NCBI GenBank assembly: GCA_001724265.1
Contig: MEDY01000201.1
Location: 1 to 52,738, forward strand
Direction: 5' to 3'
DNA length: 52,738 nt
Source: Rhizaria sp. SCN 62-66
Lineage: Eukaryota
Shown here: piece by piece, positions 15,881-52,463 of the stretch
Numbering within the stretch: the first letter of the stretch is position 1
Layout: every line of letters starts with the position of its first letter
Notes under the pieces: model-generated
What the model was told of the DNA's origin: nothing
What the model saw: only the letters and a program-made list of their open reading frames with translations
The model's database searches: none
Position numbers and translations under genes: made by a program

Positions 15881-15919
<39 letters not shown>

Positions 15920-20243: not shown

Positions 20244-23200
20244 ATGTCGGCAACTCCGCTGCGGTCTGGCTCCGTCCCGGGCTCAGTCCGCTCCGCAGCG
20301 CACATCAAGCCCGTAACATGGCCGGCACCGAGCGCTATGCACACGGTCAATCGTGCCGGTCCCATGCCGACCCTGCCAGGCTCGTCCCCACAGCATCCCC
20401 GCAGTGGGCTAAGTCTGCCCCGGACCGCGCAACAACCATTGCTGCCCTTCGAACTTGCTCCTCCGTTCCCCGGCCCCGGCATTGGCCCCGCACGCGCGCC
20501 CGCACCGCTTCCCCCCGCGCTGCTGCCCCCGCTGCTGCCGACGACCTCGTCCTCGGCCTCCTCCGCTGACCCGGCCGTCCTGACTCCCCTCGCGGCCTAC
20601 AAAGCCTTCTGCTCGTCCCTCAGCGTCCCCGCGCGCCCTTTTATCTGCTCTCAGCTTGAGCGATGCTCTTTCCCCTCGCCAGGACTCCCCACGCCTCGCG
20701 ATGCACTCGAGTGGTCCCTCACCGCGCCCGTTACGCCCGCCTCCGCGTCCCGCACCGCAGGCCCCAGCGCCGCGTGCGTCGCCGCCGTGGTGTCCCGGCG
20801 CGAGCTCACCGCGCTCCTGCGCACCGCGCAGCTGAACCCGGCGCTCGCCACACTGCGGCTCACGCGCCTCGCGCTTGCCCCGCAGGACGCCGCGCTCGTC
20901 GCGCACGCGCTCCGCGTCATGCCCGCCGTCGCCGCGCTCGACCTCACGGGGTCGCCGTTACTGACCGGCGTCACACTCGCGCCCGCGCTCGCCGCGCTGC
21001 CGCACGTGCGCGTGTATACCGACGCCGGCGTTCTCACCGCACCACGCACTGCTGCCGGGGGTCCGTCGCAGTATCACGCGCCGGCGCCGGTGCTTGCGGG
21101 GGTCCTCAGCAGTGCGGCGCCGGCGCAGTCTCTGACGCTCTCGCGCGGGCCACCGCTGGCCAGCGCCGGCGCCGCGGGCGGGCTTGTCGTTGCGGGCGGC
21201 GGGTACTTCAGCGCGCGCGAGGCCGCACTCGCTTTGGCAGCCCCGTTTGCAGCGACGCGCAGCGAGCCCGCCGCGCTGCCAGGCATCTTGCCTGACTCTG
21301 CGTCCCTTGCGCCGTCCTCTGCCGCACCAGCCGTGTCGTCGTTTGCGGCGACGAGCGTGACGCGCGCGCGCGAGGCGATCGTGAGCGCATAGTCCGCCGC
21401 ATTGCGGGCCGCGCACCCGCGCGTGGTATTGCGCCACGGGACCGGCGCCACGGACCACGCCACGCTGGCGGCTGCCGACGCAGTCGCCGCCGCCGCTGCG
21501 TCGCTTCACCACGCGGGCCCGGCGTCCGCTCGCTTCAGCGACGCCGCTGCTGTTGCTGCTGCTAGTGTTGTTGATGAGAGTGAAGACTCGCGGTATCTTC
21601 TGTCGCTGTTAGCGCAACCGCCGCAGAGCGCTGATGCGTTGTTCCCGCCATCTGCGCGTATGCAGACTCTGCTTGACGATGCCGGGCTCTCTGCCAACGC
21701 CACCGTGTCCTTAAACGCGACAGTAGCTGACACATCTTCATCGCTGACAGCGCCGCTCCCAGCGACGTTTGACACCACGAACGCGGCCGCTCCCGTCTCA
21801 ATCTCCGCATCCGCGGCCGCCGCGACCGCTCTCATGGCCTCCGCGCCGGCTTTCGCGCAGCCCGCGCTGGCGCAGTCGCTGGACCGCAGCGCGCCCGCGC
21901 CGGCGGCGTGGCTTGCCGCGCTGGCGGATCCCGCGGCGCCGGGCGCGGAACGCGTGCTGAGCCACGCAGCACGCTTCCGCGAGCTCGACGACGACGCCTG
22001 CGAGCTGCTCTGGCGCCTCGGCATCGGCCGCGGGGCCGCGCACAAGATCGGCTACACAGGCCGCGGCGAGCGCGTGATTGTCTTTGCCGACACGGGGCGG
22101 CCTGTGCGGCGCAAGGCGCGCGTTGCTGCAGTGCGCGCGGCCGTCGCGGCGGCCGCTCTGGCCACAGCGTCGACCGCGAGCGCCACGCCCGCGGCCGCCA
22201 TGCCGGCGTCTGCGCGCTCTCAGCGGCCGCACGTGTTCGCGTCGACGGCCGCTGCACTGGCGGCCGCGGCCGCGCACAGCGCAGCAGCGTCGCACGCGGC
22301 CGCTGCGGCTGCCGAAGAAGAGGCCGCGGAAGACGAAGACGAGGACGAAGACGACGACTGGCTACCGATACCGGCGCCGGAAGACCTTTCCGCAGCGACT
22401 GTTGGCGGCGTCCACGGCCACGGCGCACACAACGCGCTGGCGGCGTTTTTCGCGCTTGACCCTTCGTTTGCGGGCGCCGCGGACGCCACGGCCGCGCTCT
22501 CAGCGCTCGCGCGGACGCGCAGGCTGCTCATGATGACTGGCGCCGCCGCGAACGCTACCAAGCCCGTGACTGAGAGCGCCGCCGCCGCCGCTGCTGACGA
22601 GGATGTCACTGCTGGTGCGGCGTCCGCGGGGCACAAGAGCGGCGCCCCGACCCCGCGCGCGCTCACGGGCGCGATTGCAGCCGCAGCAGCCGCGCCCGTG
22701 GGCACGTTTTCCGCGATGGCGTACCGGCGCCAGCGCGAGATCGAGCGCGGTCTGGTTGCGTCTGACGGTACGCGTATCGACGCCACGCCCGCGAGCGCAG
22801 CTGCGGCGGCTGAGACGGAGCGCAGTGTGAATCCGCTGCAGCATCTGGGCGTGCTGTTCACCGCGACACTGGAGGATACTGCTGCACACACAGCGCGCGC
22901 GCAAGCACTTCGGGCAGCACAGGCGCAGGCGCGGAGCTCTGCGACGGCCGAGTCGAAGGCGCACCCGCTCGTCAACGCGGACGGGACGGAAAAGAAGCCT
23001 GTGCCCGTGTTTGTGACGCGCGCGGAGGCCGATGCTATGGCTGCCGCTGAGCTTGCAGCCGCCGCAGCAGCAGCCGTGGCAGCGGCGGAGGAGGAAGCTG
23101 CGGCAGCTGCTGGCTCTGGCTCTGTCGCCGTGCCTGTACCTGGGAAGATGGGAGCCGCGCAGGCGGCCGCTGTGGCCGTTGCTGCTGCGACACTCAGGCG

Positions 23201-26200
23201 CACACGCGAACATGCAGAGGCTACTGCAGCTGCGATCGCGGAAGCTGACGCTGAAATAGCCGTCGCCGAGGCGGCTGCCGCTAAAGCAGCTGCAGCCGAG
23301 GCTGCTGCGTCTGCAGAGGCGGCTGCAAAGGCCGCGGACGTCATCGCTGCTGCCGACGCCGCCATGGCCCTAATCGCAGAGGATCAATCCATCAAGGACG
23401 TTGACACTGTGCCAGCATTTAGCAGCAATATCGATGAAAAGAAAGATATCGTTGAAGGCAAGAGCACTACTAAGAGTCCTAGTACACCCACAGTCATTGT
23501 TCCACCGACGCTGCCTAGCACCTATCCCTCAGAGGCTGATTCCGCCCCTGATAATGCTGGCCCTGCTGCTGCCCCTGACATTATCACGCCTCTCTCTACT
23601 GTCCACGACGCCCTGCCTTTGTTTTCTTCTGTTCCACACTACCGCATTGGAGCAGAGTGCCTGTGGCATTTGCCAAGCTCTCTGTCCCGCGGCGTCGGAG
23701 CGTCATTCGCAGTTGCGTTGGCACAATCTATTGTTTCGCACGGCGCTGGCTTCAACAAGCTTTCTCCCGACGACGTCGCGCGCATTGTCACGTCCGCGCC
23801 CGTTGCAACGGCTAAGGGCGCCTCGTCGCCACGCGCGTCCGCGCTTCACCCACGGCTCCGCCCGTTGTTCGCTGCGCACCGTTGGTTTGCGCACACGTCC
23901 CCGCTAACACTTACGCGCGTCACCGAGGCACTGGTGCGTCTTAACGCTTTTTCGCTTGCCCGCGAGCTTTTAGCCGTCGCAGGCGCCTGGACTGTCGCTG
24001 TCGATGCTGCCGCAGACTCTGGCGCCATTACAAAGGTGATGCTCAAGAGCGCTAGCAATGCCGCCGCAGGCAAGAGCGCAAAGATCACGTCCCCGAAGCG
24101 TCGTGGCTCAGACGTTTCCGACTCGCGTGTGCGGGTGCTATGGCGCGATGAGCTGCCCGTTCTCTCCGCCGCTGTACTCACTCACGAGTTTCTATACGAC
24201 AGCGCTCTCCAGGCTTGCGACCCCGTGCCAGCGAGCCGCACAGACGGCAGTGGGACGTCAGTGCATGCAGCATTGCGCACACGCGCCAGTTTCACCCGAC
24301 TCCAGGCAATTCTCACAACGCTCGTTGGTGATACGAGCGCCGCGGCTCCAGAGGGCGCGATCGTGCAGCGGCCGGGACTGCGCGGTGTGGTATTCGCGCT
24401 GATGGCCCGTCTGCGCCACGTGCTGCTGAACCGCGCACTCGCACGGAAGCACGCGCGCGCCATCGCCACTGCTGATGCGCTGACGGCACTAGACGCTCTA
24501 TTTGCGCAGTCCCCGGCCAACCGCGCAATGACTGACAGCTCCGGTATTGTTACGCGTGTCACAGGCGGCGAAAGCGTGCCAGAGCCGGAAGCTCCGACGT
24601 ACTCTGTGGGCCTCTCGCTTGAGAACTATACGACTTTGCGCGCGCAATTGACACAGCGTTTGCGCCAGCTTCTGCTTCCGCTGCACCGGGACCGTCGGCT
24701 GCGCACGCAAGCAACCGACTGCGCTGCGCTGTACATGTCTGCGTTCGAGCTCACAGGAAAGGTCCACACAGCCGCTGCCGCTGCAGTGTTGCACTCGGTT
24801 GCCGAAAAGGACCGCACGCTGCCGCCGATGCTGGCGCGCGCACTGTTGGCGCGTGCGTCGACCGTGATGTACCGTGCCGCGAAACCTGCACAATCAGACG
24901 AGAGTTTTCTCAGCACACACCACAAGGATGTTTGCGCCGCTGCGCTTGTTGCAACAGAGAAGGATACGCTCTCACAAGACGATCATTTTTTCGTTGATCC
25001 GATTTTCAAAGTTGGATCAGCGCGCGCTACCGATGAACCCCTTTCGTTCGCTCTTGAGCTTCCTCTCTTTTCACCCGCGGCCAAAGACACGCCGATTGAC
25101 GGGTCACCAACTAGCACCGTACCTGATGCCACCGTTCAGGCTGCACTTGATGCTGCTGGGGCTGCAGCTGCACGCGATTCAGTGGCGGAAGCGTCACTGG
25201 CTGCGGCTGTTGCAAGTCTCGTGCTTGCCTCTGTGAAGACAGTCTCTGCGCCTCCCGCGCGTCTTGGTCGTATCGCATCCGTACTTTCCCCCATGAGCCC
25301 CATGAGTCCCATGAGTCCCTTAAGTCCCATTGGAGCCTCCGCGAACTCAGATACTGCGCTTGCGATGCAGAGTCCCGCAGTTCAATGGACAGCGAGCGCT
25401 GTAGCGCTCATCTCTGACTCTGGGGTAGCGCCCGGCGAGGCAAGCGCAGACGCCGGCCAAGCTGCCGGGGCGGCATTATCTTTACAGGTGGCTGAGTCTG
25501 TTGCCGTCATGGTTGATGCAGCTAAAACTGTTCTGCTCGCCAATTCACTCATCACACTGGCGGCGTCCACCGCGATGCCCTCCGTTGCACCAATGGCCGC
25601 TGCTATAGACAATGACAACTTTGCTGCGAGCCCCGCTCAGTACGATTCGTGGGGATATCCCGAAGACACTATGCAGTCCTCATCGACTGCAAGTGAGATC
25701 GCGGCCACCGCCCGTGCTATGGCGCCACACTGCGCGGCCATGCTGCATACGCTTTCCGCGGCGGGAGCTGCTGCGGCGTCCGTTGTTCCGCCGGCTGTGA
25801 TACTGCTCTCGACAGCGCGTAGTGTCGACTTCTTTGGCGCCGTCCCGAGCAGCACTCCCGCAGATGTGCTGCTGTCTAAGGACGAGGAGTTTGCCGCAGC
25901 GGGCGCGTTTGATCTTGCACTGCGCTCCGCTTTGGCTTCACACGTTTCACCGTCAGTCACGGATACTCTCACGAAGCAGGTGGACACTTTGATGGAGCGC
26001 GCACAATCGTTGCACAAGGATGTTATGCCGACGGAGCCATACGATATTAGTCTAAGCAATACCGTAGGCGAATCCATCAGCAGCGAGGCAGAGCTGCAGC
26101 CTGACCAGCGTCGTGCACTCACGCGCCAGTTCCGGTCTCTGTTTGCTTCTATCTCTAACGCCGGCCTTTCTGACCGCACAAAACACAGCTCATCTGGGAG

Positions 26201-29200
26201 CAAGTCTGTTGCTTTTGTTTTCGATAACGAAGAGGATGAGGAGGCCAGTGAGGCCAGTGATCGCGACGAGGACGCCGATGACCAGACACGTGAGAGGTCT
26301 CACAAGATGGGGCATCTTTCACCAATGATTATTGTCGTTGTGCTTGCTGGCCCGCTCGATATCATATTCGCCGAGCAGTCTCTCGCGTGTGGTGTCGCTG
26401 TGCACTCCATTCTACCAATGCCATTGCCGCAATTCCCGCCACTCGCGTCGGCCGCGCTGGGCTGGCTCGCGCGCGCTGCTGCAGTTGCCGCCGCCTCGAG
26501 CACCGTCACTGTTGCAGTCGACTCACTTCCCAGTACTTCCGACGAGGCGAGCGCTGCGTTGGAGCTGGCGCAGGTGCTTGCTCGCTCGGTCGCTGCTTCC
26601 CTTGCTGCGACCGCACACCGCACGGCGTCTGCGCTTTTCTGTCAGCTGGATCCCACCGATTCACTGTCGGCGCACGTTGCGATTGTTTCACGGGAGTTGT
26701 CCCCATTGCTGACTGTTCCACTTGTACTTTCCGCCGTGTCGCACGGAGCAGAACCTACTGTACCCACGGATTGGCCTGTGGCGACAGTCGTGTTGTCCCG
26801 TGCTTTACACCACGCCACTGCCTCAGGTGCGCTGTCGCTTGCCATCTCTGACGCGAACGTTGAGCGCTCGCGCACCCAACTCCCCGGCGGTAAGGCCCCA
26901 CCTGTCCCTTCATCGCGGTCTCTCTTGCGCGACCTTTACGGTACTCGCGTTGAAAACGCACCCAAGAAACCTATCGTGCTTCAATTAGCGCCGATCTTTG
27001 CTGCTGTGCCACTATCTCTGCTCAAAGCCACTGCGACCGCAGATGGTGATGCCACGCTTACGCAAAAGCAGCGCAACGAAACGAGCGTGACGGCTCCCGG
27101 TGCTGTGCTAACAGTCGCCATTCCTGCCGCTTTGCCATCGGCGGCTCTTGCGATTGTTGTTGACACACTGTCAATGCTGCAGCCTATCAACGCAATTGCT
27201 GCCCAACATGGGAATGCGAACACTGTTACTTATATCTTCCTCTCCGTGGCACATGCGGTGCGCCACGCACTCGCGCTCGCCCGCGCTTTTGCTGCACCGA
27301 ATGATCCTGCAGCAGATCCCGCATCGCCGGCAGTGCCACTTCCTGCATCCTCTGCGAACACCTCTTTGGCCGACTTCCGCGTCAACACACGACCGTCTTC
27401 CACTCTGGGTGACGAGCTTGCTGCGGTTCCTCAACCTGCACAGGTGCAACCTCTGCAGCTCTCGCGTCAATCCTCACTTGTGGATCTGCCGCAGCCGAAC
27501 TTCGGCCCGCTGCCCGCTGTGGCGATCGCACTTTCTCTCGGCGCGGTCACGCTGACACGTAGTACCTCCGGTGTTGCTGGCGCCTTTGTGCCCACTTTCA
27601 GTGAGCTCTCTCGTGGCGAGTGCGTTCGCTTCACAGGTTCGCCTGTTACTGAAGCTGCTGCACTGGCTGTGATGGCATCCCGGCTTGCAGCTGAACATAC
27701 AGCGGGTACGTTTATGACAACGATCATCACTGCCACCCGCACCTTTTCGCTTGCGCTGCATGCTTTTGCTCATGCGAGCTGCACGGGTTTGTCTCAACTG
27801 TCAGCAAGCTCGGTATCTGTGGTTGATGCCAACGATGCTTGGATGTTTTTGTTGCAAGCTGACACACGCCGACTTGCGCAGAAGGGTTCTCAACACGCAG
27901 CCACGGATGCTACTCGACGTGCAAGCATGGGCTCTGGATTCGCTGTAGCAGAGTCCTCTGGACGTTCGAACCATAACCATTTTTTCTTGACCGGCTCCGA
28001 GCGTCTGCTCACGTTATTAAAAAAGAAGATCGATCATCACGCCACTATTATCGCGAGAACGGCTGGTTTTTCGGATTCACAACAGTTTGTGCGCACGCAG
28101 TGGCAGTCACAGCGCGTTGTTGCTCTTGGATTCCATTCACAGGAGCTGCTGTTGCAGCAGCAGTACGGCGGTGATGCCGGCTCTGGTGGCGTTCTGAAAG
28201 TCACAATTTCCCCGGAGGACAGTGGGTACGCACAAAGCTCACCACTTTCGTCGCCATCTGCAGTCGATATGAGCCAAAAGCTGCTTTCTGTCGGTTCAAT
28301 CTCTGGCCCTGTCAGTGCCACCGCGTTCGTGCGTTACTTGACACTTGCCGGGCTTGGTGGGAGCCGTTGTCTTGCTGCCGTGGCACAGCCTTCCCCAGAT
28401 ACCGTGGTCGTGCAACTGTTGCCCACCACTGGCGCTGTGCGACTCAGTCCTCTGGATGAACCCGGTTTGTTGGACCGTTTACAACGTCCTGCGGAGTCCA
28501 ACACATTGTCGAATGTCAAGGTTGACCCACAAGGAAGCGCATCAGCAGTTCTTGCGCTCGCAATGACATCTGCCGCTGGCTCTTCGCTTCTTCCTCCGCG
28601 TCTCATGGCATACGTTGCAGACTGCCTTGTGGCATATCTTGAGGCTCACGACCGTGCGCACCGCTTTGGCTACAAGGCTATTTACGCCGCACCGATTGCG
28701 ATGGCGAAGTCGCTCACACGATCTGCGGCGTGGACTGCAGATGCGACCTTTTTGCGCTCTGCCGTCGTTGCAATCCACTCGCTGCTTATGAGGCCGCCGC
28801 GGACATTACATGATCGCCCAGTCAAGTCGAACGCGGCTGAAGCTTTTTTGCACAGTTTTGTGAGTTTACTGCCGCTACCAGTGCCTGATCATCAAGAACA
28901 CGAGTCCGATGACGGCCAGGTCGAGCCCTCCGGCAAGGAACCAACTGCTCTAAGCGCCGGCCGGCCGCTGCCCGCTCGCGTGGATGATGATTACGACTAC
29001 TCTCCACATGCAGGACTTCCCGCGATGGCGTATACTCTCGTCTCTGCTGCTGCACTTGCCGCGCTACCACCCGCGCATCCACTGGCCATTCTGGCCGTGT
29101 TCGCGCCTGACCCACCGCTGATGGCGAGCACCGCGGTCGCTCACTCTGCCTTTACCACGGGTCTGCGCTTGTTTGTTCCAGACGGCTACAACACTCCCCG

Positions 29201-32200
29201 CTACGCACCTCCCGCCTCTTTGCTTGCGGTGTTGCTGCGCAGGCCGATGTTACCACGTCTCCGGCCCTGGCTTTCACTTGCTGCAACCCCAGCACTGTCA
29301 GCCCGTGCACGTATGACTGCAACTGCTTTAACAGTGATTGACAAGCTCATGCTGATTTCGCCTTCTGGCGCCCCCAGCAGTGCTGCTGGAAACTCCTGTG
29401 ATGTGCTTGACGAACCGATCAACGGTCACAACGCGATGCGCGCGCTCACGATTCTCTCCACTCTGAGCGCGAGCGGTCATGCCACTGCTGATGACAACCC
29501 CATCGCTGACAGCAAGGGCGACGATTTCCGTGCGGCAGTGCTCCGGGCCGAGATCCTCTGGCGTCTTGGTGCGCACAAGTCTGGCGAGAGCGGTGCTGGG
29601 CCTGGTACAGCTTCGTTCCGCGCCCGTGTTCGGGCAATGGCCCGCACGCTCATTACAACACTGCGCGAGCGTGCTGCCGAGGCGGGGATTTTGACTCGGG
29701 CAGCGGTTGAAAACGCCCGCAGTTGCTTGGCGCGTTATTGGGTTGCGTTAGCGCGCAGCGAGCTTGCTAAGACACTCCTACTACGTGCTGTGGAGACGTC
29801 CGAGGCTGCCGGCGCTGACTCGGGCATGAGCCTAGTGGCGACACTCCGGCAAAAGTGGCTGTCTGCGGACTCAGAGCGGCGTCTTTCCCAGTCGCGGCTT
29901 ATGGCTGCGCTTGCCTCATTGTCTTCTGCGAGCTTGCTTCCTGCGCTTGAAGCAGAAGTGCTGAATATTTCGCCCGCGCCTACGCCCGATATGGATGTGA
30001 ACGAGGACGCAGTGTCAGCAGCCACGCATCTGCGTCACTCGGCAGCGTTTTTGCCTGCCGCTGGCTTGGCGGGCTCTGGCCGCGCTCCTGCACTGGCACA
30101 GCTGGCATTTGCACCCGCTGATAACGACTCATCAGGCTTTCAAGACCCGCTACCGCTGCAGTATGCATTTGAGTCCGCTGCATTTGCAACTCCCCAAGAC
30201 AGCACCTGGCACCATGCTGCGACTCTTACTGCGGCTGGATTTGTTCCTTCCGCTCTATCATACTCTACTGCTACCAACGCTACAACAAGTGTTGCGCCAG
30301 CTGTTACTGCAGCGCGTGGACGCGACGCAACCGGCATGCTCTTTGCTCGTGTGCGCGTTGACGCGGAGGTGATTCTCACTCATGTTCAAGCTGAGCCCCC
30401 GTTACCGGGTGAGGCTGTTCGTTTACCCTTTTCGTTTGCAGGCTTCTCCGATCTCACACCTGATCCGGCGACTGACTCCTCCCGAGTAGGCAGTAGGTTT
30501 GATTCGCAATCAGGGTTAGACATGGGACCGCTTCTTCCTGGCGACTGGCGCAACGCGGCTAGTTGCTGCTTCTTGTTTCGGCCGAACGCGACCATGGCGG
30601 CGCTTGACGCGAGCCGCCGTGCGCTGTGGCAAGCGCGGCGTGCCGTTGAAGACCGCTGGCAGGCGCGGCTGTACGCACTGTGCGCCGCGGTGGCCGACGC
30701 TGACCTTTCAGCCGCCGAGTCGGAACCTACTACTCCGTGCTCTGATCTGGCTGCAGCCGCAACGGCGTCTGCCCGCGCGCACTTCCGCGCGTACCAGCTT
30801 GACTCGTCGCGTTTGCCTGCGCTCACGTCTGCTGGCCGAGCCGCAAGTGTCGCTGCGGCCGCTCTCGCTCGTCCCTTGTACTCGACACGCGCAGGGCTGT
30901 CTGCTGAAGCGGAGACTCCCGCCGCTGTCGCTGCGTGCCGTGCAGCTTTGACGCTGCAAGGAGAGCTGCTGTACGCGGCCCGTGTGGCCGTGGCATGGCG
31001 CACGACTGCGCTGACTGGCGCGCCTTATCCCGTCGGTGCCGCCGTGCCTGCAGGCTCTCAGGAGCCCGGTCGCGAGCTCTTAGCTGCGCTTGGCGGCCCG
31101 CAGCGCGGCGTGCTGGAGCGCTGGCAGCTGGTCCAAGAACTCAAGGGTGTGCTGACCCGGCTGAAGACAGAGCACGGAATGCTGTACGCGCGTGCCGCCG
31201 CTGCAAATGCCGCTAGTACAGCCACTTTTAACAGCGCGGCTGCGCATGCGGCGGCGCTGGCGACACGGCCTGACACGACTGCAGTGCTTGTGGCGAGCCC
31301 TCAACACAGGCGTGTCAACTCTAGCATGTACCTCAACGACATCCTTGCCTCACCGCAGTCAGTGGTGCATCCCGCGACGCCGTCGCGAGCGCCACCGCCT
31401 GCGACTGGCCGGCACAAACGCGTCTTCAGTTTTGGCGCGGACCTGGGTTCCTCTTCAGCTGCTGCTGTTCGTCCGACTGACCTGATGTTGTCACCGACTG
31501 CAGCGGGTGCTGGAAACAGTGGCAACGCGGCTGAGGCGGCGCGGGCGCTTGTACCGCGCATTCAAGCTGCTGAAGCTGAGCTTACACGAGCACGTACAGG
31601 TTTGAAGGCTGCGATGTTAGTGCTATCATCTGCACGTATCGCTGCCGAGCGCGCCCGTAGGGATGCTGCTCCCGTTGAGGCTCTCACAAGCCGTGTGTTG
31701 GCCCGTATCAATAGCGCGAATGCATCTCGCGAGACGGCATCTATTATGTCCTCATTCTCAAATTCTGTTCGTGAGAGCTTGACAACACGCGACCTCCCGT
31801 CACTTGCTGCTATTGCCGCTGCGACGACAGAGTCAACAGGTGCTATCACACACTGCGACCCCGCGGTGGCGTGGTTTAGCAAGCCTCTTGATTCGGGGTC
31901 TTACCACGGTGATTTTATCTGGGACTCTCCCCTGGCACTAACGTATCTGCCGGAGTGCGTCGCGCAGCCACTGCCCGCTCTCACACACGTGCTTTGGCCT
32001 GTACAGTCCTTGCCCGAGACTGCTGTTGCCCCCACACAGGCCCTACAAAGCACTGGCTCTCGCCGTGGATCCTTGTCAGGCGTCGCAGCGACACCCAGTT
32101 CCAATGGATCGGCACCACTGGTCTCCCCTTTCCGCCCTGTGGCCACGCCGAATACACCCGTCAAGACGCCATTGAAGCATGCTCGCACAGGATCTATGAC

Positions 32201-35200: not shown

Positions 35201-37688
35201 CGCCGCCCATGGCTTGCTTTCCCTGCGGGCCGGCGACTCTAAGCTCTCTGTGCGTTCTCGTGGGCACGCACGCAGCCGCTCAGTGGTATCAGCTGCAGGC
35301 GTTGTCAAGCGTGTTACAGCAAATGAGAGTGGTGAAAGTGATGACGACGATAATGGAGCGGAAGACACCGCTGATCCCGAGTGCATGGATGCTAATGAGA
35401 CGAAGAGTATTGGCAGCACGTACACATTCGACCTCACAACGTTGCTGCCACCACTATTTCCGACATCTGCAGCATCATTTGTCGCAACTTCTGCTAGCGC
35501 AACTGCGTCTCAAACCTTCCGTGGTCGCACAGCCTCTGCTGGCTCTGGAATCGGCCGTGCTGCGACAGTCTTAATGCTGGTGCGCGCGGTAGCGCTCGAA
35601 ACGAGGTCGAAATGCGCTGACAAGGGCACTCCCACTGTTCCGTCGGAGACGCTCTTGGATGCAATTATGCTGAATACGGGTAAGCTTGGCGAGAGCGATG
35701 ATAACGAAGAGCATAGTGACCATGACGAAGTGAGCCATTCAGACTCGACTCTTGGCGACCACAGCAGCGACCATGTTCAGCATGATAATAAACGCGCAGC
35801 GTGGATCCTGGACGCAGAGTCCGTGTTGCCTCTGATACCCAATGTGAGTCAAGTGAATGGTTTGCCTGGTGCTCTTATTCCTCTACCTGGGACAATGGCT
35901 CTTCCGACTACAAATGCCAAACCAGCTGTTTCTGCGACAAAAGAGTCTCCAACGGATGTCACACCGCTACAGGTGTGCGCACTTGTGCCTGAGTGTGGTG
36001 AGCTCACAGCCCATCGCACTCTCCAAGGTGCAACTACAAGTGACGTTGCTTCGGTCACAATTCACGCCCCTGTTAATAACGCCTGTTCATTGCCCAATGG
36101 CAAGATCTCCGGCACATTCCACGCTGTTTGCTTTACTCTTGCTCCCCGCAGTGTTTCTGTGATGACTCCTGCAACTAACGATGACGTGCTCTCTATCATC
36201 ACGCAGCTTCTCATTCGTTGCAACAGCGTTGTTTTCCAACAGCCGGAAATCCTCGAGTTATTCACTGTGGCTGCACACTCCGAAGTTTCACCAGTCGCAG
36301 ACGTTGCAACGGATTCCACTGCTGTTGCTGGTGCCCCTGCATGCGCACTATACTTTTCAGACCCTCGCTCCGCTGCTGTCTTTGCACTCGCTGCGTCTCG
36401 CCTCGGTCAGCTCTCCACCTTCGGAAAGCGCTCGAGCAAAAGGAGTGCGGTTGCCACGCTCTTGGGCAATTACTCACTTGCCGTCGCATTGCATTCTGGC
36501 TCGGCGACGGTTGGCTTTGCAACCGTGAGCCCTGCTGACACGAAACAACAGGCCGTTAGCGACTCGACGGTTGCTTCTGCCGCCGCTGCTTCTCCAAGTC
36601 GTCCCGCCGCCGCGGGACCACGTGCGGCGCGCCTGGCTGCTACTGCCGGCCTCGACGCGGCGATTCCGAGTGATAACGCGCATCATCAGTCTGTGTCGAT
36701 GCTTCCTGCGATTGCAGCACTGCCGCTGTTTTGCAGTGCTGGTTTGTCAGATACAGGCAAGTCCGTTGTCACCGATGCATCTCTCGCACCCAAAATCACA
36801 AGCACATTTATTTCATTGCTCCCAATTTCTTCACCCAACAACAGTGTATCACACTGCACCCGTTTTGAGCTCAGGTATGTTTCAAAGACCGTGTCTGGCC
36901 CGCTCACATCTGACGTGCGGTCAATTTTCTCCGAGTTCACTCTCTTGCCAAGCTTGTCTCACAGCCTGGCGCCGGACGCAGACTCCGAGAGCGAGTCGTC
37001 GGTGAGCAGCGCAGCGCAGCCTGCGTGCTCTCGTGTGATGTTCACGTTGCCGTTCCTGCTGCGCCTTTCCTCATCCCCGGCACAGCAACTCAACATCACG
37101 ACTGCAGCCGATCTTGTTGCCGACCTGTTGGAGGCGGGTGAGCTTCTTGCCGCCCACCTCCGCCCCGCGTTCCTGGCTGCCCGCGCTTTCCCTGTCCCGC
37201 AGACGCTCTACGCCTTGGCGCGGCCGCACCGCGTGCTCTCTGCTCCGGGCCTTGCGCGCGCGCTGCGGGCGATCCGCGCCGGTCTAGTGCTTCCGGCCAC
37301 TGCACTTAGCGCTGCGAAGACCGGTGGCAACAACAACATTACCGCGCAGGCGGCGGGCGCGTCGCCCACAGCGCTTGTGGTGGCTCCGCCCACAGTCGCT
37401 GCAACAGTCGCGCTCGCCGCTTCGCTTGTGTTCCCGCCAGCAGCTGCTTCAAACGACGCTCCTGTGCAGCGCGGGCGTGCGCGGGCTATGCGTGCGCTGG
37501 TGCGTGCGGCCGAGAGCGCGTTGGAAGAGCGCGGCGTTCTTGCGTGGGGCGTGCGAAACGCAAATGTGGCCGGAACAGTTGAGGCGGACTGTGAGTTGCT
37601 GCTCTCAGAGGAAGCTGCGAAGACAAACAAGGCTGTGTCCAGTGCGTGGGAAGATCCACAGGATGCGGAGCTTGATGCATTTATCTAA
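20244..37688 (+). CDS. Giant Ala-rich multidomain protein, about 5814 aa if the in-frame TAG at 21390 is read as sense: N-terminal LRR-like region, helical-repeat-like region, two SLOG-like plus degenerate class III cyclase-like units
   Basis: ORFs 20229-21392 and 21402-37688 share one frame and are separated only by TAG plus 9 GC-rich nt. LRR-like LATLRLTRLAL..VAALDLTGSP lies at about 20600-21010. SLOG-like LDIIFAEQSLACGVAVHSILP (26325-26424) and VVFAGH..DLTFAEAV..ELHVMLP (33384-33693). Cyclase-like YIFLSVAHAVRHAL..IALSLGAV..FTGSPVTEAA (27222-27760) and LYFSDPRSAAVFAL..VALHSG (36339-36515). TAA stop. Domain names are by eye. Confidence 0.65.
21390..21392 (+). other. In-frame TAG, putative sense codon
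   Basis: GTG AGC GCA TAG TCC GCC GCA TTG; the frame stays open for over 5400 further codons. Confidence 0.7.
25287..25331 (+). repeat. 9-nt coding repeat encoding SPMSPMSPMSPLSPI
   Basis: tcc ccc atg agc ccc atg agt ccc atg agt ccc tta agt ccc att. Confidence 0.8.
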
Positions 37689-38186
37689 CACGCTTATTTG
37701 ATACTTATTTCTTGCTTAATTAGTACGCGTTGTCGGCGTACCACAACTTTACTCCATGTTTTCTAACGACCGATTCTCGTGTCTATACATATAGTTTACC
37801 CTCTTTCACCTCGGTGATTTATGATTTGTGCATGATCGTGCATTAAAATGGAATTTTTCACTCCTAAACACGAATCATGCGCGAGATATTAATTGATGTT
37901 TAACGAATACCACGCCACATGTATCGGGGACTGTGGCCCGAAAAAATTATCGGCCAGTTGGACAGCAGCACTTCGGAGTTGAGCGCAAGTCTCAAAATGT
38001 CGCACTATATTCCGATACCGAATGTTGCGGGATACATATATGCTTTGAACTACAGATTAGTATATTGTTGCTTATTAAAACCTCAAAAATCCTTGCTTTG
38101 CCTTCACAACAGATTGCCCCAGAGCGAGACTCTTGACCGTTCGGTAACGAGACACGAGGCCCTCTCTCTGACCTTGCCGTAACACC

Positions 38187-39525
38187 ATGTTGAGCTCATT
38201 CCGTGCAGGTTCTGCCCTCCGCACTGCAGTGCGTGCTACTACGCATGCTTCTACCTCTGCATATGTCATCTCCTCGCCCCTGCGCGGCATGGAAGCAAGT
38301 GCGGTCTTTGGAGCTGGCAACTTTATGCAACCCTCTGTCAACAAAGCGTATGTCGCTGCAGCTTCACCATCATTTCTAGATGAATCATAACCGTATTTTT
38401 CATTATCAAACACATCTCATGTGCACATATTCGTTTGTTGATCCGCTATATCTCCCCGATCACAGAAGCATTGCCCGCGTGTTCGCACACGTCAACACCG
38501 AGGAGAACCGAGCCCAGTGGGACTACGATGCCTTCGTGCCGGACATGGGCAGCCAGGACGCGTACGAGATCGTCTCCAAGCTGGGCCGCGGCAAGTACTC
38601 TGAGGTTTTTGCAGGCATCCATCTGCCGACAGACGACCCCGTGGTGATCAAGATCCTCAAGCCGGTCAAGACTCGCAAGATCAACCGCGAGACTCTCATT
38701 CTCTCGCGCCTCGCACAGGGCCCCAACATCGCGCGCTTGCGCGAGACGGTGCAGGATCCTGTGTCCAAGACGACTTCGCTCGTGCTCGACTACACAGACG
38801 GCGCCGACTTCAAGACGCTCTACCCGACGCTCAAAGACGCCGATGTGCGGTTCTACCTCTACCAGCTGCTGCGCGCGCTCGCACACGCACACTCGCACGG
38901 CATCATGCACCGCGATGTCAAGCCGCACAACGTGATGATCGACCCCAAGCGCCGCACGCTCACGCTTATCGACTGGGGCCTGGCCGAGTTTTACCACGCC
39001 GGCTACGAGTACAACGTGCGCGTCGCGTCGCGCTACTTCAAGGGACCCGAACTGCTGGTCAACATGAAGGACTACGACTACTCGCTCGACCTCTGGTCCT
39101 TCGGCTGCGTCATGGCTGAGATGGTGTTCCTTGTGCACCCGCTGTTTCAAGGCAAGGATAACGACGACCAGCTCGTCAAGATCACAAAGGTCCTCGGCAC
39201 GCCCGCGCTGCGCCGTTATTTGGAGCGCTACCGCGTTTCGCTTGAGCCGCGTCTCGAGGCGCTGATCGGTGAGTACGCGCCGCGCCCGTGGACGCGCTTT
39301 GTCACCGACGCGAACCGCCACCTCGCGCACGCCGACGCGCTCGACCTGCTGTCGAAGGTGCTTGTGATGGACCACCAGCAACGGCTGTCGGCCGCCGAGG
39401 CGCTCGCGCACCCGTACTTCGACGCCGTGCGCGCGGCTGAAGCGGAGCGCCAGGGCAAGGCCGCCGCGGAAGCGGTCTCGCGGGAGATGGCGGCGGCGAA
39501 CAACGCGACCGCGAAGATAGTCTGA
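38187..39525 (+). CDS. CK2A (CSNK2A-like): Casein kinase II alpha catalytic subunit with N-terminal presequence-like extension; exons 38187-38347 and 38466-39525, about 406 aa
   Basis: SIARVFAHVN..WDY, LGRGKYSEVF, VIKILKPVK, HGIMHRDVKPHNVMID, LIDWGLAEFYH..YNVRVASRYFKGPELL, YDYSLDLWSFGC. A GTATGT..CAG intron at 38348-38465 joins in frame (GC|A). TGA stop. Confidence 0.93.
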
Positions 39526-39855
39526 GCTCAGCACTGCAAATGCACACATGCTTGCACACTCTGCATTGGTACCCTTATAATCACTGACTTGTGATACTCA
39601 TGAGATGTAATCGAGCGATTTGGATGTTGTGCATGCTAATCTATAACGTATTTAGATCCGAACAACTGCGTTCGACGACGGGCCACATACTGGATACAAA
39701 ATTGCAAGTTTATTTAACCTTCTTCATCATCTGTGAAGGTATGCAGCTTGAACTATATTGTGAGCTATGGTCGATATCTCTCTGTACAAAATTGTATTTT
39801 TGACATGACATCTGCTTGCCAAACTCTAAATAACCTGATATGCGCCGGAAAGTCC

Positions 39856-42800
39856 TCAATTGCCAACATCGTTGTTGGCGTCACCCTCCCAATATCCAGT
39901 GTCACCATCTTCACCTTCTCCGTAACCATCGGCCTCTTCACCCTCGTAGTAGTAATAATAATCCCCTTCACCCCAATCGCCTTCACCGTCGCTGTCCACA
40001 TCACCCGTCGAGTCAACGTGCGTCTCATCAACATGATCACCGTAATTCACCCGAGCCTCAGCTGTGGATCCACTCCCATGGTTGGGCGCGGCTGATTCTT
40101 GCTTCACGGCTGTACGACGGGCAGCGCCGGTCCGCGCAGCGACAACAGATTCGACTGACATCCCGTCTTCTACTCCGTCGCCTTCAGCAGCAGCTGCTGA
40201 AGCGCTGCCTGCTGCGCTACTGTGCGGATGTTGCTGATGCTCGTGCTTGACTGTGGCTGATCCATGTGCAGCCGCATTGCGCGTGCTAGCAGAGTTGGCA
40301 ATAGAAGAACCGACACCAAGGTTATTATCCTCGTTCGTCTTTACGTCGGTGTCTGCTTTGCTATCATCGTGCATTGCAAAAACGTTGTTATTATGTAGCT
40401 CATGGCTCGGTTCGTGCGTGCCGTCTAGCTCTTCTTCTTCACTCTCATCTTCGTGGTACTGTTCACGTTCAGCGATAGAGCCAAGCAAGAGCTTTCGAAG
40501 CTGCGTAATAAGCACACTCTCGACAGCCTCAGCAGAGACTGCGGAAGCTGTGTGACCCGTGCCGGGCTCTGCCTTTACGTGCGGCAGTGTGGCGCCATCA
40601 GTCGAGCTGCTCAACGCACTCGCAGGGGTGGCGCCGGCTAGAGCCGCCGCAATCCTACGCTTAAACGCGCCTGACGCACTATGCCGCACAATGTCTCCGA
40701 TTGACGCTGCGATTGCAGGCGCCACCGTCTAGTGCTGATACACACTGCGCCGCTCGCGCCGCGACAACACACCCGGCAGACGCGCCTTTGCTGCGACAAT
40801 AGCGCGCGCCGCGCAGACGGTGACAGCGCGCGCTCGTGCACGCGTCAGCGCTACTGAGACCTTGTGTAAAGACTTGTACGGTATGGGTGGTGCACGAGCT
40901 CGGTTGGCCGCTGCCGCACCAATTGCAGACGGCTCGCCTTCGGCTGCACCAGTGTCAAAGTTGATTAGCATGCATATTCGGGTCACACGCGGCGCCGCCA
41001 CTGCATCCGCAAGCACGTCCCTTCGCCCACCTTCGCTCGCGCCGCCACCAGCATCTACAGCAGCGCCCGATGAGATATCACTGCTAGCGTCGGTGGGACG
41101 AAGCCATTGCGTTTGGCAATATGCCCACGCACTAGCCTCCGGTGGCGGCGGCAGCGTGAATATCTCCATATCGGCGTCAGCCTTATCGACGTCTCTGCGC
41201 TGGAAGTGTGGCCAGCTAGTGTCTGTGCGCAACCGGTCTGCAGCTGCGGTAGGTGCGCGCGCAGTTGTGGCAGGTACCGCCTCAAGTCCCAGTAGCGCAA
41301 CTGCAGACTTCAGCATAGCTTGATCAATTACGGACACTGCCTTTGCTAAGTCACAGTCTCCTGCAGTGGCTTGGGGCAGAAGTGAAGATGAGGCAACGGA
41401 GCGGTAACAGTGAAAGGGAATTAGACTATGTAAATATGCGGGGCTAGCATCTGATTCTTCGGTGTTCCCAGTGGGAGAATCTTCTCCATCGCTCGTGCTG
41501 CTCTTTTCGCACGTTGCGCGCGATGATGATAAACCAGCACCATAGTCGTTCATAGTATCTGTTTCAACCAATAACACGCAGTGAAAACAATCGCCGCGCG
41601 CCAGCGACTGAGCCAGCGATGCGCGTGTTTGTAATCGCTTGTACTGGGTTGCGTGGAATAAACGTTCTCCAGCGGTGGGCGGCGGTAGGAACGTCGTAAT
41701 TGCAGCGTGTACGCGAGTTTCTTCTTCTTGCACAGTCATGGTATTGGTTGCATCAGTTACAGTTGGCTGCTGCTCTACTGTTGTGTTTGCGGGGGCGGCT
41801 CTAACAACGTGGGAACGATCAGCTCCATGCACATGGCTAGAGCCTGCTGTGCTCTCCGACTTTACGAATGTGTCAATAGGCGGCTTAGATGCGGAAATGC
41901 TCTGATCACGATTTGTTGTTGGGAGCAGATCGTTGCGGTGTGATAGCCATGGGACCAGCGGCATGATGCTGCGTAACGTAGTCTCTAATGCGCTTGAAGT
42001 AGCACCAGCGTCCAAGTTAGATGTGCCGACCTGATCAGTAGCTAACTCATCAGCAGGCGCAGTCGCTGAAGGCTCAGATACATTCTCCACATTGCTTGCG
42101 GCTACATCATGCGTTTCCGTTTTGACGGGGGTGCTCAATGTTTCGGCATTAGTTGCGTTTCTTATTGCGGCACCGTTGCCTGTATTTGCCTAATGATCGG
42201 AACGGGCGTCTGCAAGTGAATCGTTGTCAGTGCTGACATCCCCGTGCGACTGCTGTTGCGTGGGTTGATGTTGCTGGTGAAGCATGCGTGAGCGCTTTCC
42301 AACCGGGAGAATTGTTGGAAAAGATGGCACGTGTGCACTTGTGTTTGCGACCTGTAGCACGCTTGGCCGCTGACGGCGCACACGCACACGGACACGCGTG
42401 CGCTTGGTCTGGGCAACAGCAATATTAGTCGATTGATTGAATTGATCCGGCAGGTAACTCGAGTTTTTATCCGCTGCTTGTGCTGCAGTGATGCGAGCTG
42501 GAATGCGCAGTGATGCCAAGTTACGTACGCTTGCGTGGCTTACAGTTGTCGCAACAATGCACATTCCAGCCGCAGGACCTGCGCCATTGAATTCACTTTG
42601 CCCATCATTGAGAACAGATAACCCAAACTGTGGCAGGCGTGCGCGATGGCGGGAGTACACTGCCCAAAGCGCGAGACAGCCGTGCACTAAACGGGGCAGT
42701 GCTGCCTGCGCAGTGCCACCAGCTGCCAACGCTGCGCCCGGTAGCCATGGCAACGGAGCAAGTGATGCCGGTGAGCCTGTTGTTAAACCGCCTTCGCAAG

Positions 42801-45617
42801 GAGAGTCCGCGCTTGCAAAAGCGAGGATACGCGATGCTGCTGCAGAGTTGATTACTGGCAGCGCAACAACGGTAACTGGGCGGTCCCGCTAAACGTTTTC
42901 AAGGGGGGGTGGCAAATCATCCTCATTACCAGTGTTAACGTTTGCAGAAGCATCGCCTAACTCCTCATCACGCGTAGGGCGTGTTTCGTCAGCTGATGAA
43001 ATATGTTCTGAATCTGCTGCTGAGAACGTCTTGTAAAAAGCTGGAAGGATGTGCATAACGTTGACCCCGCAGAGCTTGCGCACAAGTAAGCGTGCTGTGT
43101 CAGTAATGCCGGCGTGTTTCTCAGGCAACCGATGCGGTTGTTCGATATAGTCAACATGCCGACGGCCTGACGTCCATATTTTTGACTCAGTTGGCTCTCG
43201 TTGAAGCGCAGTGACCGCAGCAACCGTGCCTACCCAGCTGCTTAAATAACTCCGCATACCATTGTATACTGCAGGCAATGGTGCCGTGTAGAGACGCAAC
43301 GCATCATGATAGTTAACACAAAAGTTAGCCGGACCTGGTTCATCGTACCAGCACTCCCGGCCACCGCTGTCCGGTTTATCATTAGCTTCGCTGTTCGTTG
43401 TTTTGTCTTGAAGTGTCGCATTTGCTATTTGCTCAATCACGCTTGGCGATGACAGAACAAAGATGGGCCGACGTGTCTCGCCTGTCCGATTCTGAGCGTC
43501 AACTGAAAACACAGCAGCTCCACTCGACGCTTTAAGCAAGGTCTCGAGTTGCAGCGGCGGCGCCAGCAGATCAACGCCAGGCTGGATAGACTTCAACAGT
43601 GACATGAGCACAGGTGCGACTGGGGCACGCGCATTGGATACCTGCGACGGAACAGCTGTGAGAGCTGCTGCAAAGGCCGATGTGGCAGCCGAGTCAAGCG
43701 CTGCAGCATGCGGTGGTCGCCATAGGCTGTAGGGCTCCTCCGGGACCAGAAGTGCAATCTCATCCATCTGCCAGGTGGCAGCTGCATTGGGTACGTGTGT
43801 TGACGCATTAGGAACTTCTACAGCTGCTGTTGAAAGAGCGCCCGGGCGCGTCGCTGCAAGTCGGAGCAGGCCTGCTGCAGTGGCTTCAGGGCACAGTGCA
43901 AGCCGCAGATGGGGACCATTTGGCGTTGCGGTACAGACGGCGTCAACACGCGCGCACGTAAGAGATGGCAACGGCAGTGCACGTTGCGCGGCAACAGCCC
44001 CAGCGTGGGCTGCCACGTCTTGCGTCTGAACAGCGGGCTGTGGCCAAACAAAAGCGCCCGACGGTGAGGCCGGAAAGGCCCACTTACAGACAAGCCGGAC
44101 ACGCACACTTTGAGTGTCTGCGACGGAAGGAACAAGTCCCAGCAAAGGCTGCGATGCCACATATGCTAGGATTGCGCGTGCACATGCGCCCTCAGCTGCA
44201 GGGTCAGCCGGCGCCACGAGTGCAAGCGTCACGCGCGTACCCTGGGACTGGGCTCGTCGCTGCCCCGCTCCACATGCTACGGATACCGCTGCGTGATCTC
44301 GTGTGTTTGCCAGCACATGAACTGGCTTAGCACGGGCGCGCACAACGCGCACTGCAGTGTCACCCGAGATTGCACCCACAGTCACTTCGTGCATCTCGCC
44401 CATTTTAGATGCGGTACCGCCCAAACTAGATGCTGCGTTTGATGCGCTTGCGTTTAGACTCACAGACGCATTGGCCCTGGAACTTGTGCTTGTGTTCATG
44501 GACGCACTCAAAGTTGAAGCTGATAACGGAGGATCAGAACGTTCAGAACCGCTATCGGTGACTGTCAGCACAGTGACTGTACCTGGACCCCATGGTCGTA
44601 ACTTTGAAGCATACAGCACAACGCCCTTAAAACCGACGCCAAATGTGCCGACGGTGCCACCAGTTTCCGCAGGACCTTCTCCACTTGCACTGGCAGACGA
44701 TGTGTCCACATCAGAGCGATCACCAATACCGGCGAGCGTCGTCGGCGCTGCTGCAGCATTAGAACCATCATCGTCGCCACCCTTAGAAGATGCAAAAAGC
44801 GACGTCATCAGCCGGGCGCGCGCAGGATCCGTGGCTAGCCCCGCAATGCCTGAGCCCGAGTCCTGCGCAGTAACGGTGTAGCGCACCAGGAAACGTCCCG
44901 GGGCTCCGGCCCCGCGGCCAGACTGCAGGTCAGCTACTGAGGCAAGCGGTGTCGCTGTGCTCCCCCCCGTGGCTAATGCAGAGTTGGGGGCAGACAATAG
45001 CGCGTCGGCGGTGTCAGCGGCTGCTGCAGCCGCGGCGGATGCTGCTGCTGAAGTTGCAGCGGCAGTGCCGCCACCCGCGACAGCAAACGTTGCTGGTGCG
45101 GTAACAAGGGGCTGCCAGTTACGGTGCGTGCGCGAGATGTACTCGCGCTGTGGAGGACGCACTGGGGCAGATGCATTGTCAGCAAAGCATGAGCCTGGAG
45201 GGGGCGGCCACTCATAAGCACTCGCTGAGCTTGTGGCGCACGCCGACCGCAGCCAGGCAAGCTCTGATCCTGATTCAAGCGCCGCAGCGTAAAATGACTG
45301 CGCGGGTGCCGCAGCCCAGGTGTCAATGATGTGGCTGGCGTGGATGGTCATTGTGATGTTATGTTGTGTGGTGGCAGAGAGGGGGGAGCTGAGTTGACGA
45401 TCGCGGATTGCATCAAGAGCATTGTCAAATAGCTCCTTGACCGTCTGGAATACCGCCGACTCAGGTGAAAACCCGAGGAGTGCAAGATCTACAAGGGAAA
45501 TACATATGCACGCTGTGAATTAAGATATATTGTTCGATATAATGTGGGACTGGAGTTAGACAGGTGAACAGACGTACTTTTGCCAAAGAAACGAGCAGCA
45601 CTCGGCTCGGAAGACAT
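39856..45617 (-). CDS. TOP6B-like: DNA topoisomerase VI subunit B-like protein (GHKL plus transducer); exons 45617-45578 and 45488-39856, about 1890 aa with three in-frame TAG codons
   Basis: The spliced N-terminus MSSEPSAARFFGK|NLALLGFSPESAVFQTVKELFDNALDA matches the Top6B start and Bergerat motif I. QDSGSGI (about 44845-44865), GTFGVGFKGVVLY (44611-44649), GTRV (44230-44241), transducer IPYKSLHK (40861-40884) and VAPAIAASIGDIVRHS follow. Four listed ORFs share one frame, joined by TAG at 42889, 42190 and 40729. Final stop is TGA. Confidence 0.85.
40729..40731 (-). other. In-frame TAG within the conserved transducer end of TopoVIB-like
   Basis: RRSVYQH*TVAPAIAASIGDIV. Confidence 0.8.
42190..42192 (-). 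other. In-frame TAG in TopoVIB-like
   Basis: DARSDH*ANTGNGAAIRNATNAETLSTPVK. Confidence 0.75.
42889..42891 (-). other. In-frame TAG in TopoVIB-like
   Basis: PPPLENV*RDRPVTVVALPVINS. Confidence 0.75.
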
Positions 45618-50094: not shown

Positions 50095-50347
50095 CTGTCA
50101 GACGATTTGACCTCGTAGACCTTGATTGCATATTTTTTCCGATGTGTCAACGCAATAACTTATCCGACAAACGCATTTTCAGCATGCTTTATGAATGTTA
50201 GACCCGATTTAAAATATAATGTGAATGTAAAACCTGATAAAATTCATATGTAGTGCTTATATAAACCTCCGAGCGCAAACTCACCCCCTCCTCGCTTGCC
50301 CCCCTTCGTAATGCATTCGTTAAACAGCAGCAGCTCGACTTAAAGTC

Positions 50348-50933: not shown

Positions 50934-52463
50934 GTAGCGAAGCCAACAAGCACGCCGCCCCCGCCTACTCAGAGGCACTTGCACAGACTGCTATCGAGGG
51001 CGCGGCATCCAAGGACGCCGTCACGTCACCTCTAGAAGTTGTCGCGGAGGCAAACGCTGAGACTGACGACAACAGCAGCGTTGAACTGCAGGACCCCACT
51101 TCGCCAGCCGTGGTAGACTCAACATCCGACTTGTTCTCACCGCTGCCGCCGCCTGCGTACGCTGACGAGTTCCCCGAGTCCACGGCGTCCCCCAGCTCTG
51201 GGTCCGAGGCTGAGGACGGCGAGCCCGCGGTGAAGCAGATTTGCCTGATTTACGACCGTCTAGGCATGGTGACGAGCAACATGGACACGTCGCTAATGTC
51301 CACGATGCGCGACCTCACCGTCCTTATGCAAGACTGCTACGCAGAGTTCCTCGGCAAGGTATACTTTCTCAACGCATCCACGGCATTCTGGGTCATTTAT
51401 AAGATCATCTCGCCGTTTCTGTCGCAGAAGACCAAGGATAAGTTCATCTTTTGCCGCTCTGTGGCTGAATTGCGCAACCACTTCGATGTTGCTCAGCTGC
51501 TTCCTGTGCATGGGGGCGCGTCTTGCTACACCTTCCCGCACCGCCGCGTACGTTCACTGTGAAAATGATTCCTGTGTAGATTATCATCCTCTTCCTTTCT
51601 TTTTCACTTCTTGCCTGCGGCATGTGTTGCTCTTCAGTGTTTTGCTAATCTATAATATCTGTTGTTGTGTTTCTTTGCATCTGCGCACGCAGCCGCCGAC
51701 CGAGGCGAAGAGCTCATTCCCGCTCCTGGGGCCCGGCGCGGGGCAGCTGATCAACTGCGACATGTTCATGACGCCGGAGACTGCGGACGCCATCGATTTC
51801 CCCGTGCTCACGGCCTCCGCAGGCAACGCCGCCACTGCAGTGCTACCGGTCCCCATCCCTGTTGGCGATAACAGCCCCGATGGAGACGACGTTGACGACG
51901 CCAACGACACCTCCTCTGCGCCCGGTGCGAGCGCAAAGAAGGGCCGGTGCGTCGCGTTGTATCTGCGCGGCGCCAGCTCCGGCGCGGGCGTGTGCTCCGG
52001 TCTGACGGCGACGTGGCACCCTCTGCCGCTCTGCCCGCTGCAGGGCGGCGCCGCGCCCTCGCCCTTCACCGGCACAGTCGCCGGCGTCGCGGCGCTGCCG
52101 GTGCCGGATACCTTCGCGGCTGTGGCCGCTGCCGCGGCCGCCGCGACGGGCGCGCCCGCGGCGGGGTCGGGCTCCGCGGTGTACGCGGCGTCGCCCTGGG
52201 AGCGCCGCTGGGCGGGCGCGGAGGGCGCGGGCGACGCGGCGTACCACCGCGCGCTCCGGGGCGTCGAGGCCACCGAGACGCTCTCGGCAACTGAGCCCAC
52301 GGTCGTATATGACAGCGCGAACCGCACGAAGGAGGACTGCGAGCGCGTGGTTTTCCGCGTCCCGGGCCCGGGGACGCTGGCGATCTGCATCGATAACGCC
52401 GGCTCGTGGATTCGCGGCAAAACCGCGCGTTACTACGTTCGCGTGGCGCCCGCCGACGTGTGA
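50348..52463 (+). CDS. Sec14/CRAL-TRIO lipid-binding protein with C-terminal GOLD-like domain; exons 50348-51547 and 51693-52463, about 656 aa
   Basis: DDAQLCRFLRAREGDV..W..WR, GRDKAGR, QDCYAEFLGKVYFLNA..YKIISPFLSQKTKDKF, LLPVHGG. A phase-0 GTACGT..CAG intron lies at 51548-51692. The GOLD-type end reads GTLAICIDNAGSWIRGKTARY. TGA stop. Confidence 0.9.
50864..50932 (+). repeat. (AAC)23 perfect coding microsatellite (poly-Asn)
   Basis: Read directly inside the CRAL-TRIO domain insertion. Confidence 0.95.

Follow-up and report, generated by a model that had tools for sequence, protein, structure and literature searches.

The contig MEDY01000201.1 (assembly GCA_001724265.1, deposited as Rhizaria sp. 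SCN 62-66), whose 52,738 nucleotides were analysed over their full length and are called the window here, contains two very long genes that are interrupted in frame by TAG codons and by no other stop codon. It is moderately probable that these codons reflect a genome-wide change of the genetic code in which UAG alone has passed from stop to sense, with UAA and UGA remaining as terminators. The codon TAG 0 (21390..21392, + strand) is codon 383 of a giant orphan gene, termed giant gene 2, when the ATG at 20244 is taken as codon 1. The other three codons lie on the minus strand (CTA on the plus strand) in a gene resembling those of GHKL/TopoVI-B proteins, at positions X877 (TAG 1, 42889..42891), X1110 (TAG 2, 42190..42192) and X1597 (TAG 3, 40729..40731) of the protein P0002. 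Translation through the TAGs is well supported in the minus-strand gene and plausible at TAG 0 of giant gene 2.

In-frame TAG codons in two long genes

The plus-strand frame at 20196-37688 has a single TAG and comprises 5830 codons when this is read through, or two blocks of 398 and 5431 codons when it is taken as a stop. With its three TAGs, the minus-strand frame at 39856-45519 gives 1887 codons by read-through and blocks of 876, 232, 486 and 290 codons otherwise. The two frames together extend over about 23.1 kb without any internal TAA, TGA or frameshift, as a first-pass annotation of this DNA had described, and the four TAG coordinates given in that annotation are also correct.

Across the ten genes of the window (14,935 codons) TAG occurs in frame four times, TAA and TGA never. 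In the two TAG-bearing genes TAG occurs 4 times in frame and 85 times off frame, against 0 and 432 times for TAA plus TGA (one-sided Fisher test of this contrast, P=0.0008). The usage of TAG is 0.27 per 1000 codons, that of the rarest standard codon, AGA, being 1.14 per 1000. Both TAG-bearing genes belong to the class with a low GC content at third codon positions (GC3), which is 0.50 in the TopoVI-B-like gene and 0.56 in giant gene 2, and TAG is found only in this class in the window; GC3 is also 0.56 in the DUF4505 gene and reaches 0.89 in the PDI gene and 0.83 in the CK2 gene.

Recurrence and exonic position of the TAG codons

The possibility of an assembly error, or of an allele with CAG or TGG, had been raised in the first-pass annotation and was checked in other assemblies, where the TAGs recur, with GAG at TAG 2 in the data set X4. 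Two contigs of the data set X3 (39198-41288 and 41352-43773) cover all three minus-strand TAGs with 0 differences from the window, and a metagenome scan returned one locus, L001, identical to the window over 41352-43628. TAG 1 is identical in the X3 contigs and in L001, and TAG 2 is TAG in X3, in L001 and in P0131, a fragment recorded as a database open reading frame (ORF). In the databases, ORFs taken from contigs of 50962, 52873, 7871 and 2093 bp stop and restart exactly at the TAG sites; the fragments P0128 and P0133 end at TAG 3 and P0134 restarts just past it. The independence of these observations is limited because X2 and X3 are perhaps a single data set, possibly from the campaign that also yielded the source of the window. 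X4 dates from 2025, comes from another study, is clearly independent and is about 0.9% diverged from the window.

Three introns are predicted in the window, at 4545-4686 (+, 142 nucleotides), 45577-45489 (−, 89 nucleotides) and 51548-51692 (+, 145 nucleotides), each with a GTACGT donor, an AG acceptor and the frame kept, and all three AT-rich. The PDI ORFs of related sequences break off into Val-Arg at conserved positions, as would result from reading a GTACG(T) donor. Three of these relatives that are truncated (P0123, P0104 and P0098) had been candidates for TAG breaks and were rejected, as they run into introns, with Val-Arg (GTACG) after the break. These breaks and the three introns indicate that the organism is intron-poor, not intronless.

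That the TAGs might be spliced out had also been considered beforehand; GC content and splice sites place them outside introns. The 180 nucleotides around each TAG have a GC content of 0.52-0.75, compared with 0.39 for a recognised intron and about 0.41-0.53 for the spacers between genes, and a scan of the minus-strand TAG gene for AT-rich islands found none. Short introns removing the TAGs were rejected; the sole candidate donor in the vicinity of TAG 1 would produce an intron of 41 nucleotides that is out of frame. Local GC on both flanks of TAG 0 is 0.70-0.77, without an intergenic-like dip, and GC at the three codon positions of giant gene 2 is 0.73/0.67/0.80 before TAG 0, unlike spacer DNA, and agrees with the 0.75/0.64/0.76 of the next 500 codons. 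TAG 0 is not a gene boundary, because the next ATG lies 95 codons downstream.

Conservation and selection downstream of the TAG codons

The last 1200 residues of the TopoVI-B-like protein, searched exhaustively with HMMER against 1.84 billion representative sequences, returned 5 proteins, of which four are fragments of the protein itself and the only other is P0132, a protein of 306 amino acids with 45% identity. The alignment with P0132 is gapless across TAG 3, with 31 residues before and 85 after it, and has Asp in the TAG 3 column. TAG 3 falls in the best-conserved block, where QH-TAG-TVAP in the window corresponds to QH-D-VVAP in P0132, and both proteins have an acidic, aromatic C-terminal tail. 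The region behind all three TAGs is thus a conserved part of the protein, because P0132 aligns there and has the same tail. A word-index search for relatives of the gene gave none at near lengths and, at shorter lengths, only 4 self fragments. The ORF of P0132 starts with Val inside the conserved block, though its JGI contig is long (14,092 bp), which suggests that this ORF may be interrupted just upstream by a stop codon or an intron.

The strain represented in X4 was compared with the window over 41377-43789, where 22 differences were found and 19 were listed, the codon counts resting on those 19, and over 39078-41151, where there are 13 differences whose sites were not itemised. Downstream of TAG 1 the listed differences comprise 7 synonymous and 2 non-synonymous changes plus the TAG to GAG change at TAG 2 (P=0.0019, the synonymous share expected at random being set at 0.264 in this and the other comparisons), and 8 of these 10 differences are at codon position 3. 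Between TAG 2 and TAG 3 the ratio is 6 synonymous to 1 non-synonymous (P=0.0016). This pattern indicates that the frame behind TAG 1 has stayed under purifying selection. At TAG 2 the X4 strain carries GAG, a Glu codon (42192 A>C on the plus strand). TAG 1 is untouched by all the listed X4 differences (19 of 22) and is therefore probably older than the split of the two strains.

Stop codons at gene ends

The first-pass annotation had counted nine gene ends, all in TAA or TGA and never in TAG, and this count stands, with one end moved to another TGA. TAA closes three genes (PDI, giant gene 2 and kleisin), TGA closes six and TAG none. In the PDI gene the TAA (2180..2182, − strand) directly follows a C-terminal KDEL and exemplifies a real UAA terminator; KDEL or HDEL is found at the C-terminus of 8 of the 13 aligned PDI sequences. 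The C-terminal domain of the kleisin reaches residue 853 of 854 and is followed by TAA. These two positions of TAA and the absence of in-frame TAA and TGA from all 14,935 codons support both as terminators. The end that has moved is that of the Sec14 gene, since the TGA at 51560-62, which closes its ORF, probably lies in the intron at 51548-51692, and the probable spliced gene would run on to the TGA at 52461..52463 (+), with donor, acceptor and frame continuity; the stop tally is unchanged by this move.

Two ORFs that do end in TAG were rejected as evidence of TAG stops. The 82-codon ORF at 4317-4565 is an exon 1 running into its intron and does not mark a gene end, and the 246-codon ORF at 51650-52390 (−) is not a gene, being antisense to the probable second exon of Sec14.

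Candidate residues and a possible mechanism

The contexts of the TAGs had initially been taken to fit Gln best, a preference that does not hold, because just two comparisons are informative, with Glu (GAG) at TAG 2 in X4 and Asp at TAG 3 in P0132, and Glu and Gln are about equal as candidates. The codons of both are one step from TAG. There is thus a hint of a polar or acidic residue, for which Glu or Gln would fit, Gln not being favoured over Glu. Since both aligned residues are acidic, Leu is unlikely, and Tyr and Trp fit poorly too. If UAG stands for Glu, the TAG/GAG difference between strains would be synonymous, like most others in that stretch.

In the proposed mechanism UAG would be decoded as an amino acid in cytoplasmic translation, and in the simplest case by a tRNA whose anticodon is CUA; UAA and UGA would be kept as terminators, and UAG would have been lost as a terminator throughout the genome. 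The gene for eRF1 is not in the window. The very low frequency of UAG and its restriction to long genes with weak codon bias would fit an early or inefficiently decoded stage. A more specific version, possible although we hold it as doubtful, is an incipient reassignment of UAG to Glu (or Gln) near the stage of codon capture, in a hitherto unsampled, GC-rich, intron-poor eukaryotic lineage of wastewater. UAG would then already have been dropped as a terminator and be reappearing, at 0.27 per 1000, as a sense codon in weakly expressed genes, while still turning over between strains, as the TAG/GAG polymorphism may reflect.

Alternative explanations

The initial proposal that UAG is a rare sense codon beside UAA and UGA stops is supported by selection, the P0132 alignment, the non-intronic position of the TAGs, their recurrence and the lack of TAG at nine gene ends; its extension to the whole genome draws on four codons and nine ends. 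Several observations weigh against the proposal. The sample is small (4 TAG codons in 2 of 10 genes), and TAG occurs in frame about 10 times less often than off frame and 4-5 times less often than AGA does. The well-conserved genes (PDI, CK2, kleisin, Sec14 and DUF4505) contain no TAG, hence hyperconserved columns provide no evidence. Under the standard code the lack of TAG at nine ends has a probability of 0.02-0.23, for an assumed TAG share of 15-35%. Of the one-step nonsense targets 39-50% are TAG, and the probability that 4 of 4 random nonsense hits would be TAG is 0.03. The polymorphism at TAG 2 is also expected from a recent nonsense mutation, the chance that at least one of three TAG codons is hit at the X4 divergence being about 0.08. 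Just upstream of TAG 1, X4 has 4 synonymous versus 5 non-synonymous differences (P=0.18), which points to no more than moderate constraint on the gene. The polyA metatranscriptome run X5 has no contig over any TAG, and its contig at 45347-45780 spans the intron at 45489-45577 unspliced, so that it may be DNA. A tRNA scan of the window found no tRNA gene, and an Rfam scan gave no match.

Among the other explanations, we regard as unlikely that UAG is still a terminator but a leaky or ambiguous one, with a natural suppressor or weak recognition by eRF1 giving it a dual meaning that depends on position or context. The very low in-frame usage, confined to two low-GC3 genes, and the turnover of TAG 2 between strains would agree with this, and nine ends are too small a number to exclude TAG stops or to separate such leakiness from full reassignment, even though none of the nine is TAG. 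However, each of the three successive UAGs that precede the conserved C-terminus would have to be decoded with high efficiency, which would be hard to square with a working stop. The four TAGs are followed by four different bases (T, C, G and A), and by eye the codons that follow have no common motif; this lack of a common 3' context speaks against context-driven readthrough. Programmed stop-codon readthrough, judged on sequence motifs, fits poorly on the same ground of a missing stimulatory motif, and because one gene has three sites in place of the usual single one.

Less likely still is that the TAGs are real premature stops, so that two dispensable genes, for instance a TopoVI-B-like gene of the meiosis type in a clonal population, are represented by truncated or decaying alleles in the strain of the window. 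GAG at TAG 2 in another strain, the weak codon bias of both genes (GC3 0.50-0.56), the large share of TAG among one-step nonsense outcomes and the 4 synonymous versus 5 non-synonymous differences just upstream of TAG 1 would all be compatible with decay. Four neutral nonsense hits should, however, have been accompanied by many substitutions and several indels, and 23 kb of frame contain no frameshift, TAA or TGA; this and the 7 synonymous versus 2 non-synonymous differences past TAG 1 contradict a pseudogene. The synonymous excess downstream of both TAG 1 and TAG 2 (P about 0.002), the apparent presence of TAG 1 in both strains and the conservation in P0132 of the C-terminus past TAG 3 also argue against premature stops. 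Finally, it is very improbable that the TAGs are an artefact of assembly or are removed at the RNA level, by short in-frame introns or by editing. The organism does have introns, and the TAG sites lie outside the RNA contig coverage that would bear on editing, but the same sequence is found in several assemblies, the TAGs are set in GC-rich, coding-like DNA unlike the AT-rich GTACGT introns of 89-145 nucleotides, and P0132 aligns one to one over TAG 3.

The TAG-bearing genes and the rest of the window

Giant gene 2 (20244..37688, +) has 5814 codons and a TAA stop, and a Pfam search assigned it to no family. The GHKL/TopoVI-B-like gene (39856..45617, −) is modelled with exon 1 at 45617-45578, the intron at 45577-45489 and exon 2 at 45488-39856, with an ATG, a GTACGT donor, an AG acceptor, the frame kept and a TGA end. 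In the ORF itself the first ATG lies downstream of a GHKL N-box-like motif, and the 13-codon first exon (45578-45617, −), with its ATG at 45617, restores the N-terminus of the protein; an alternative in-frame acceptor about 24 nucleotides upstream of the chosen one is possible. The assignment of the three-TAG gene to the GHKL/TopoVI-B family is weak. Its product matched no Pfam family and no PDB sequence. With a stored fragment of the protein as query, Atlas feature matches to HATPase_c_3 clusters scored 0.87-0.88, and the Atlas structure matches for TopoVI-B reached only TM values of 0.22-0.28, with a model pLDDT of 0.34. The N-terminal motif presumably resembles that of TopoVI-B.

The window is eukaryotic DNA with genes on both strands. 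The public runs that contain this stretch are metagenomes of bioreactors, wastewater and activated sludge, and the window is thus a metagenomic contig of an uncultured organism. Its coding DNA has a GC content of 0.55-0.75, compared with about 0.41-0.53 in the spacers. Besides the two TAG-bearing genes it encodes a four-domain PDI with a KDEL end, a CK2-type kinase, a Rad21/Rec8 kleisin, a DUF4505 protein, a Sec14 (CRAL-TRIO) protein and a DEP/WD40 protein of 3665 codons; the labels 'PhnA-like' and 'B55' of the first-pass annotation have no support from Pfam. Relatives of the PDI at 77%, 60% and 54% identity are metagenome proteins, and the nearest named sequences, scattered over a foraminiferan, a euglenid and a fungus, are 36-45% identical. 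An affinity to sainouroids or fornicates was weighed and found no support. A scan of genome contigs with the PDI relative P0104 gave 21 loci of bacterial thioredoxins, and none of the contigs was eukaryotic.

The DEP/WD40 protein is encoded by giant gene 1 (7839-18836, +), in which a DEP domain is accompanied by weak WD40 matches, GC3 is 0.83 and no in-frame TAG occurs. The Sec14 ORF (50324-51562, +) contains a run of about 24 Asn and is apparently spliced to a second exon at 51693-52463 (+), the locus then covering 50324-52463. Its last 40 or so residues may resemble a GOLD domain, a resemblance left unconfirmed by Pfam and PDB searches; the PDB search with the probable second exon gave only a chance-level match (E=0.34). 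Two segments, 48095-48759 and 52085-52738, show a 5-30 fold increase of depth in all runs, with many loose ends and false joints; they are of low complexity, with acidic GAC/GAG repeats and GCC-rich runs, and draw contigs of other organisms.

Comparison with known genetic codes

Nuclear codes that part UAG from UAA are few; in the literature consulted they come from a single rhizarian, a single fornicate and certain lineages of ciliates (PMC5304391, PMC11687900, PMC10553269). In the fornicate Iotanema spirale UAG codes for Gln and UAA and UGA are stops, with 204 UAGs in 126 genes, placed at conserved Gln columns, and UAA as the stop of 104 of 119 genes (PMC5304391); in a close relative UAG persists as an infrequent stop, with 7 of 170 genes ending in it (PMC9161772). 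As in Iotanema, which is also a non-ciliate protist, UAG alone occurs in frame in the window and genes are closed by UAA or UGA. Unlike Iotanema, the window has 4 TAGs in 14,935 codons, TGA as the commoner stop (6 of 9) and Glu and Asp as aligned residues. Rhizaria sp. exLh (Sainouroidea) reads UAG as Leu, has 384 of these codons, distributed over 71 genes and placed at conserved Leu columns, and uses UAG less in highly expressed genes (PMC5304391). The window resembles exLh in that only UAG is affected and TAG is absent from high-GC3 genes, and differs in that the aligned residues are acidic, Leu being unlikely.

Ciliate genomes are usually AT-rich. In phyllopharyngean ciliates UAG stands for Leu or Gln and UAA is the preferred stop; UAG serves widely as a sense codon there and suppressor tRNAs have been found (PMC11687900). 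The two cases are alike in that UAG is uncoupled from UAA and that both came to light through the mining of metagenomic and genomic data, whereas the coding DNA of the window has a GC content of 55-75% and UAG is very rare in it. In Oligohymenophorea sp. PL0344 UAA codes for Lys and UAG for Glu, and only UGA terminates (PMC10553269). This is a precedent for UAG as Glu decoded apart from UAA, but in the window TAA ends 3 of 9 genes, including PDI directly after its KDEL. Further full-text literature searches, supplements excluded, gave no other lineage that parts UAG from UAA.

The window would thus join a known but rare kind of code variant, and would differ from the known UAG-only cases in a far lower UAG usage, GC-rich coding DNA and TGA being commoner than TAA as stop. 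Standard gene callers cut the genes of this organism at TAG, an effect visible in the fragmented ORFs of the databases. If the proposed reading is true, a non-ciliate, GC-rich case with extremely low use of UAG would be a natural example of early stop-codon reassignment, and would allow models of codon capture to be tested against those of an ambiguous intermediate.

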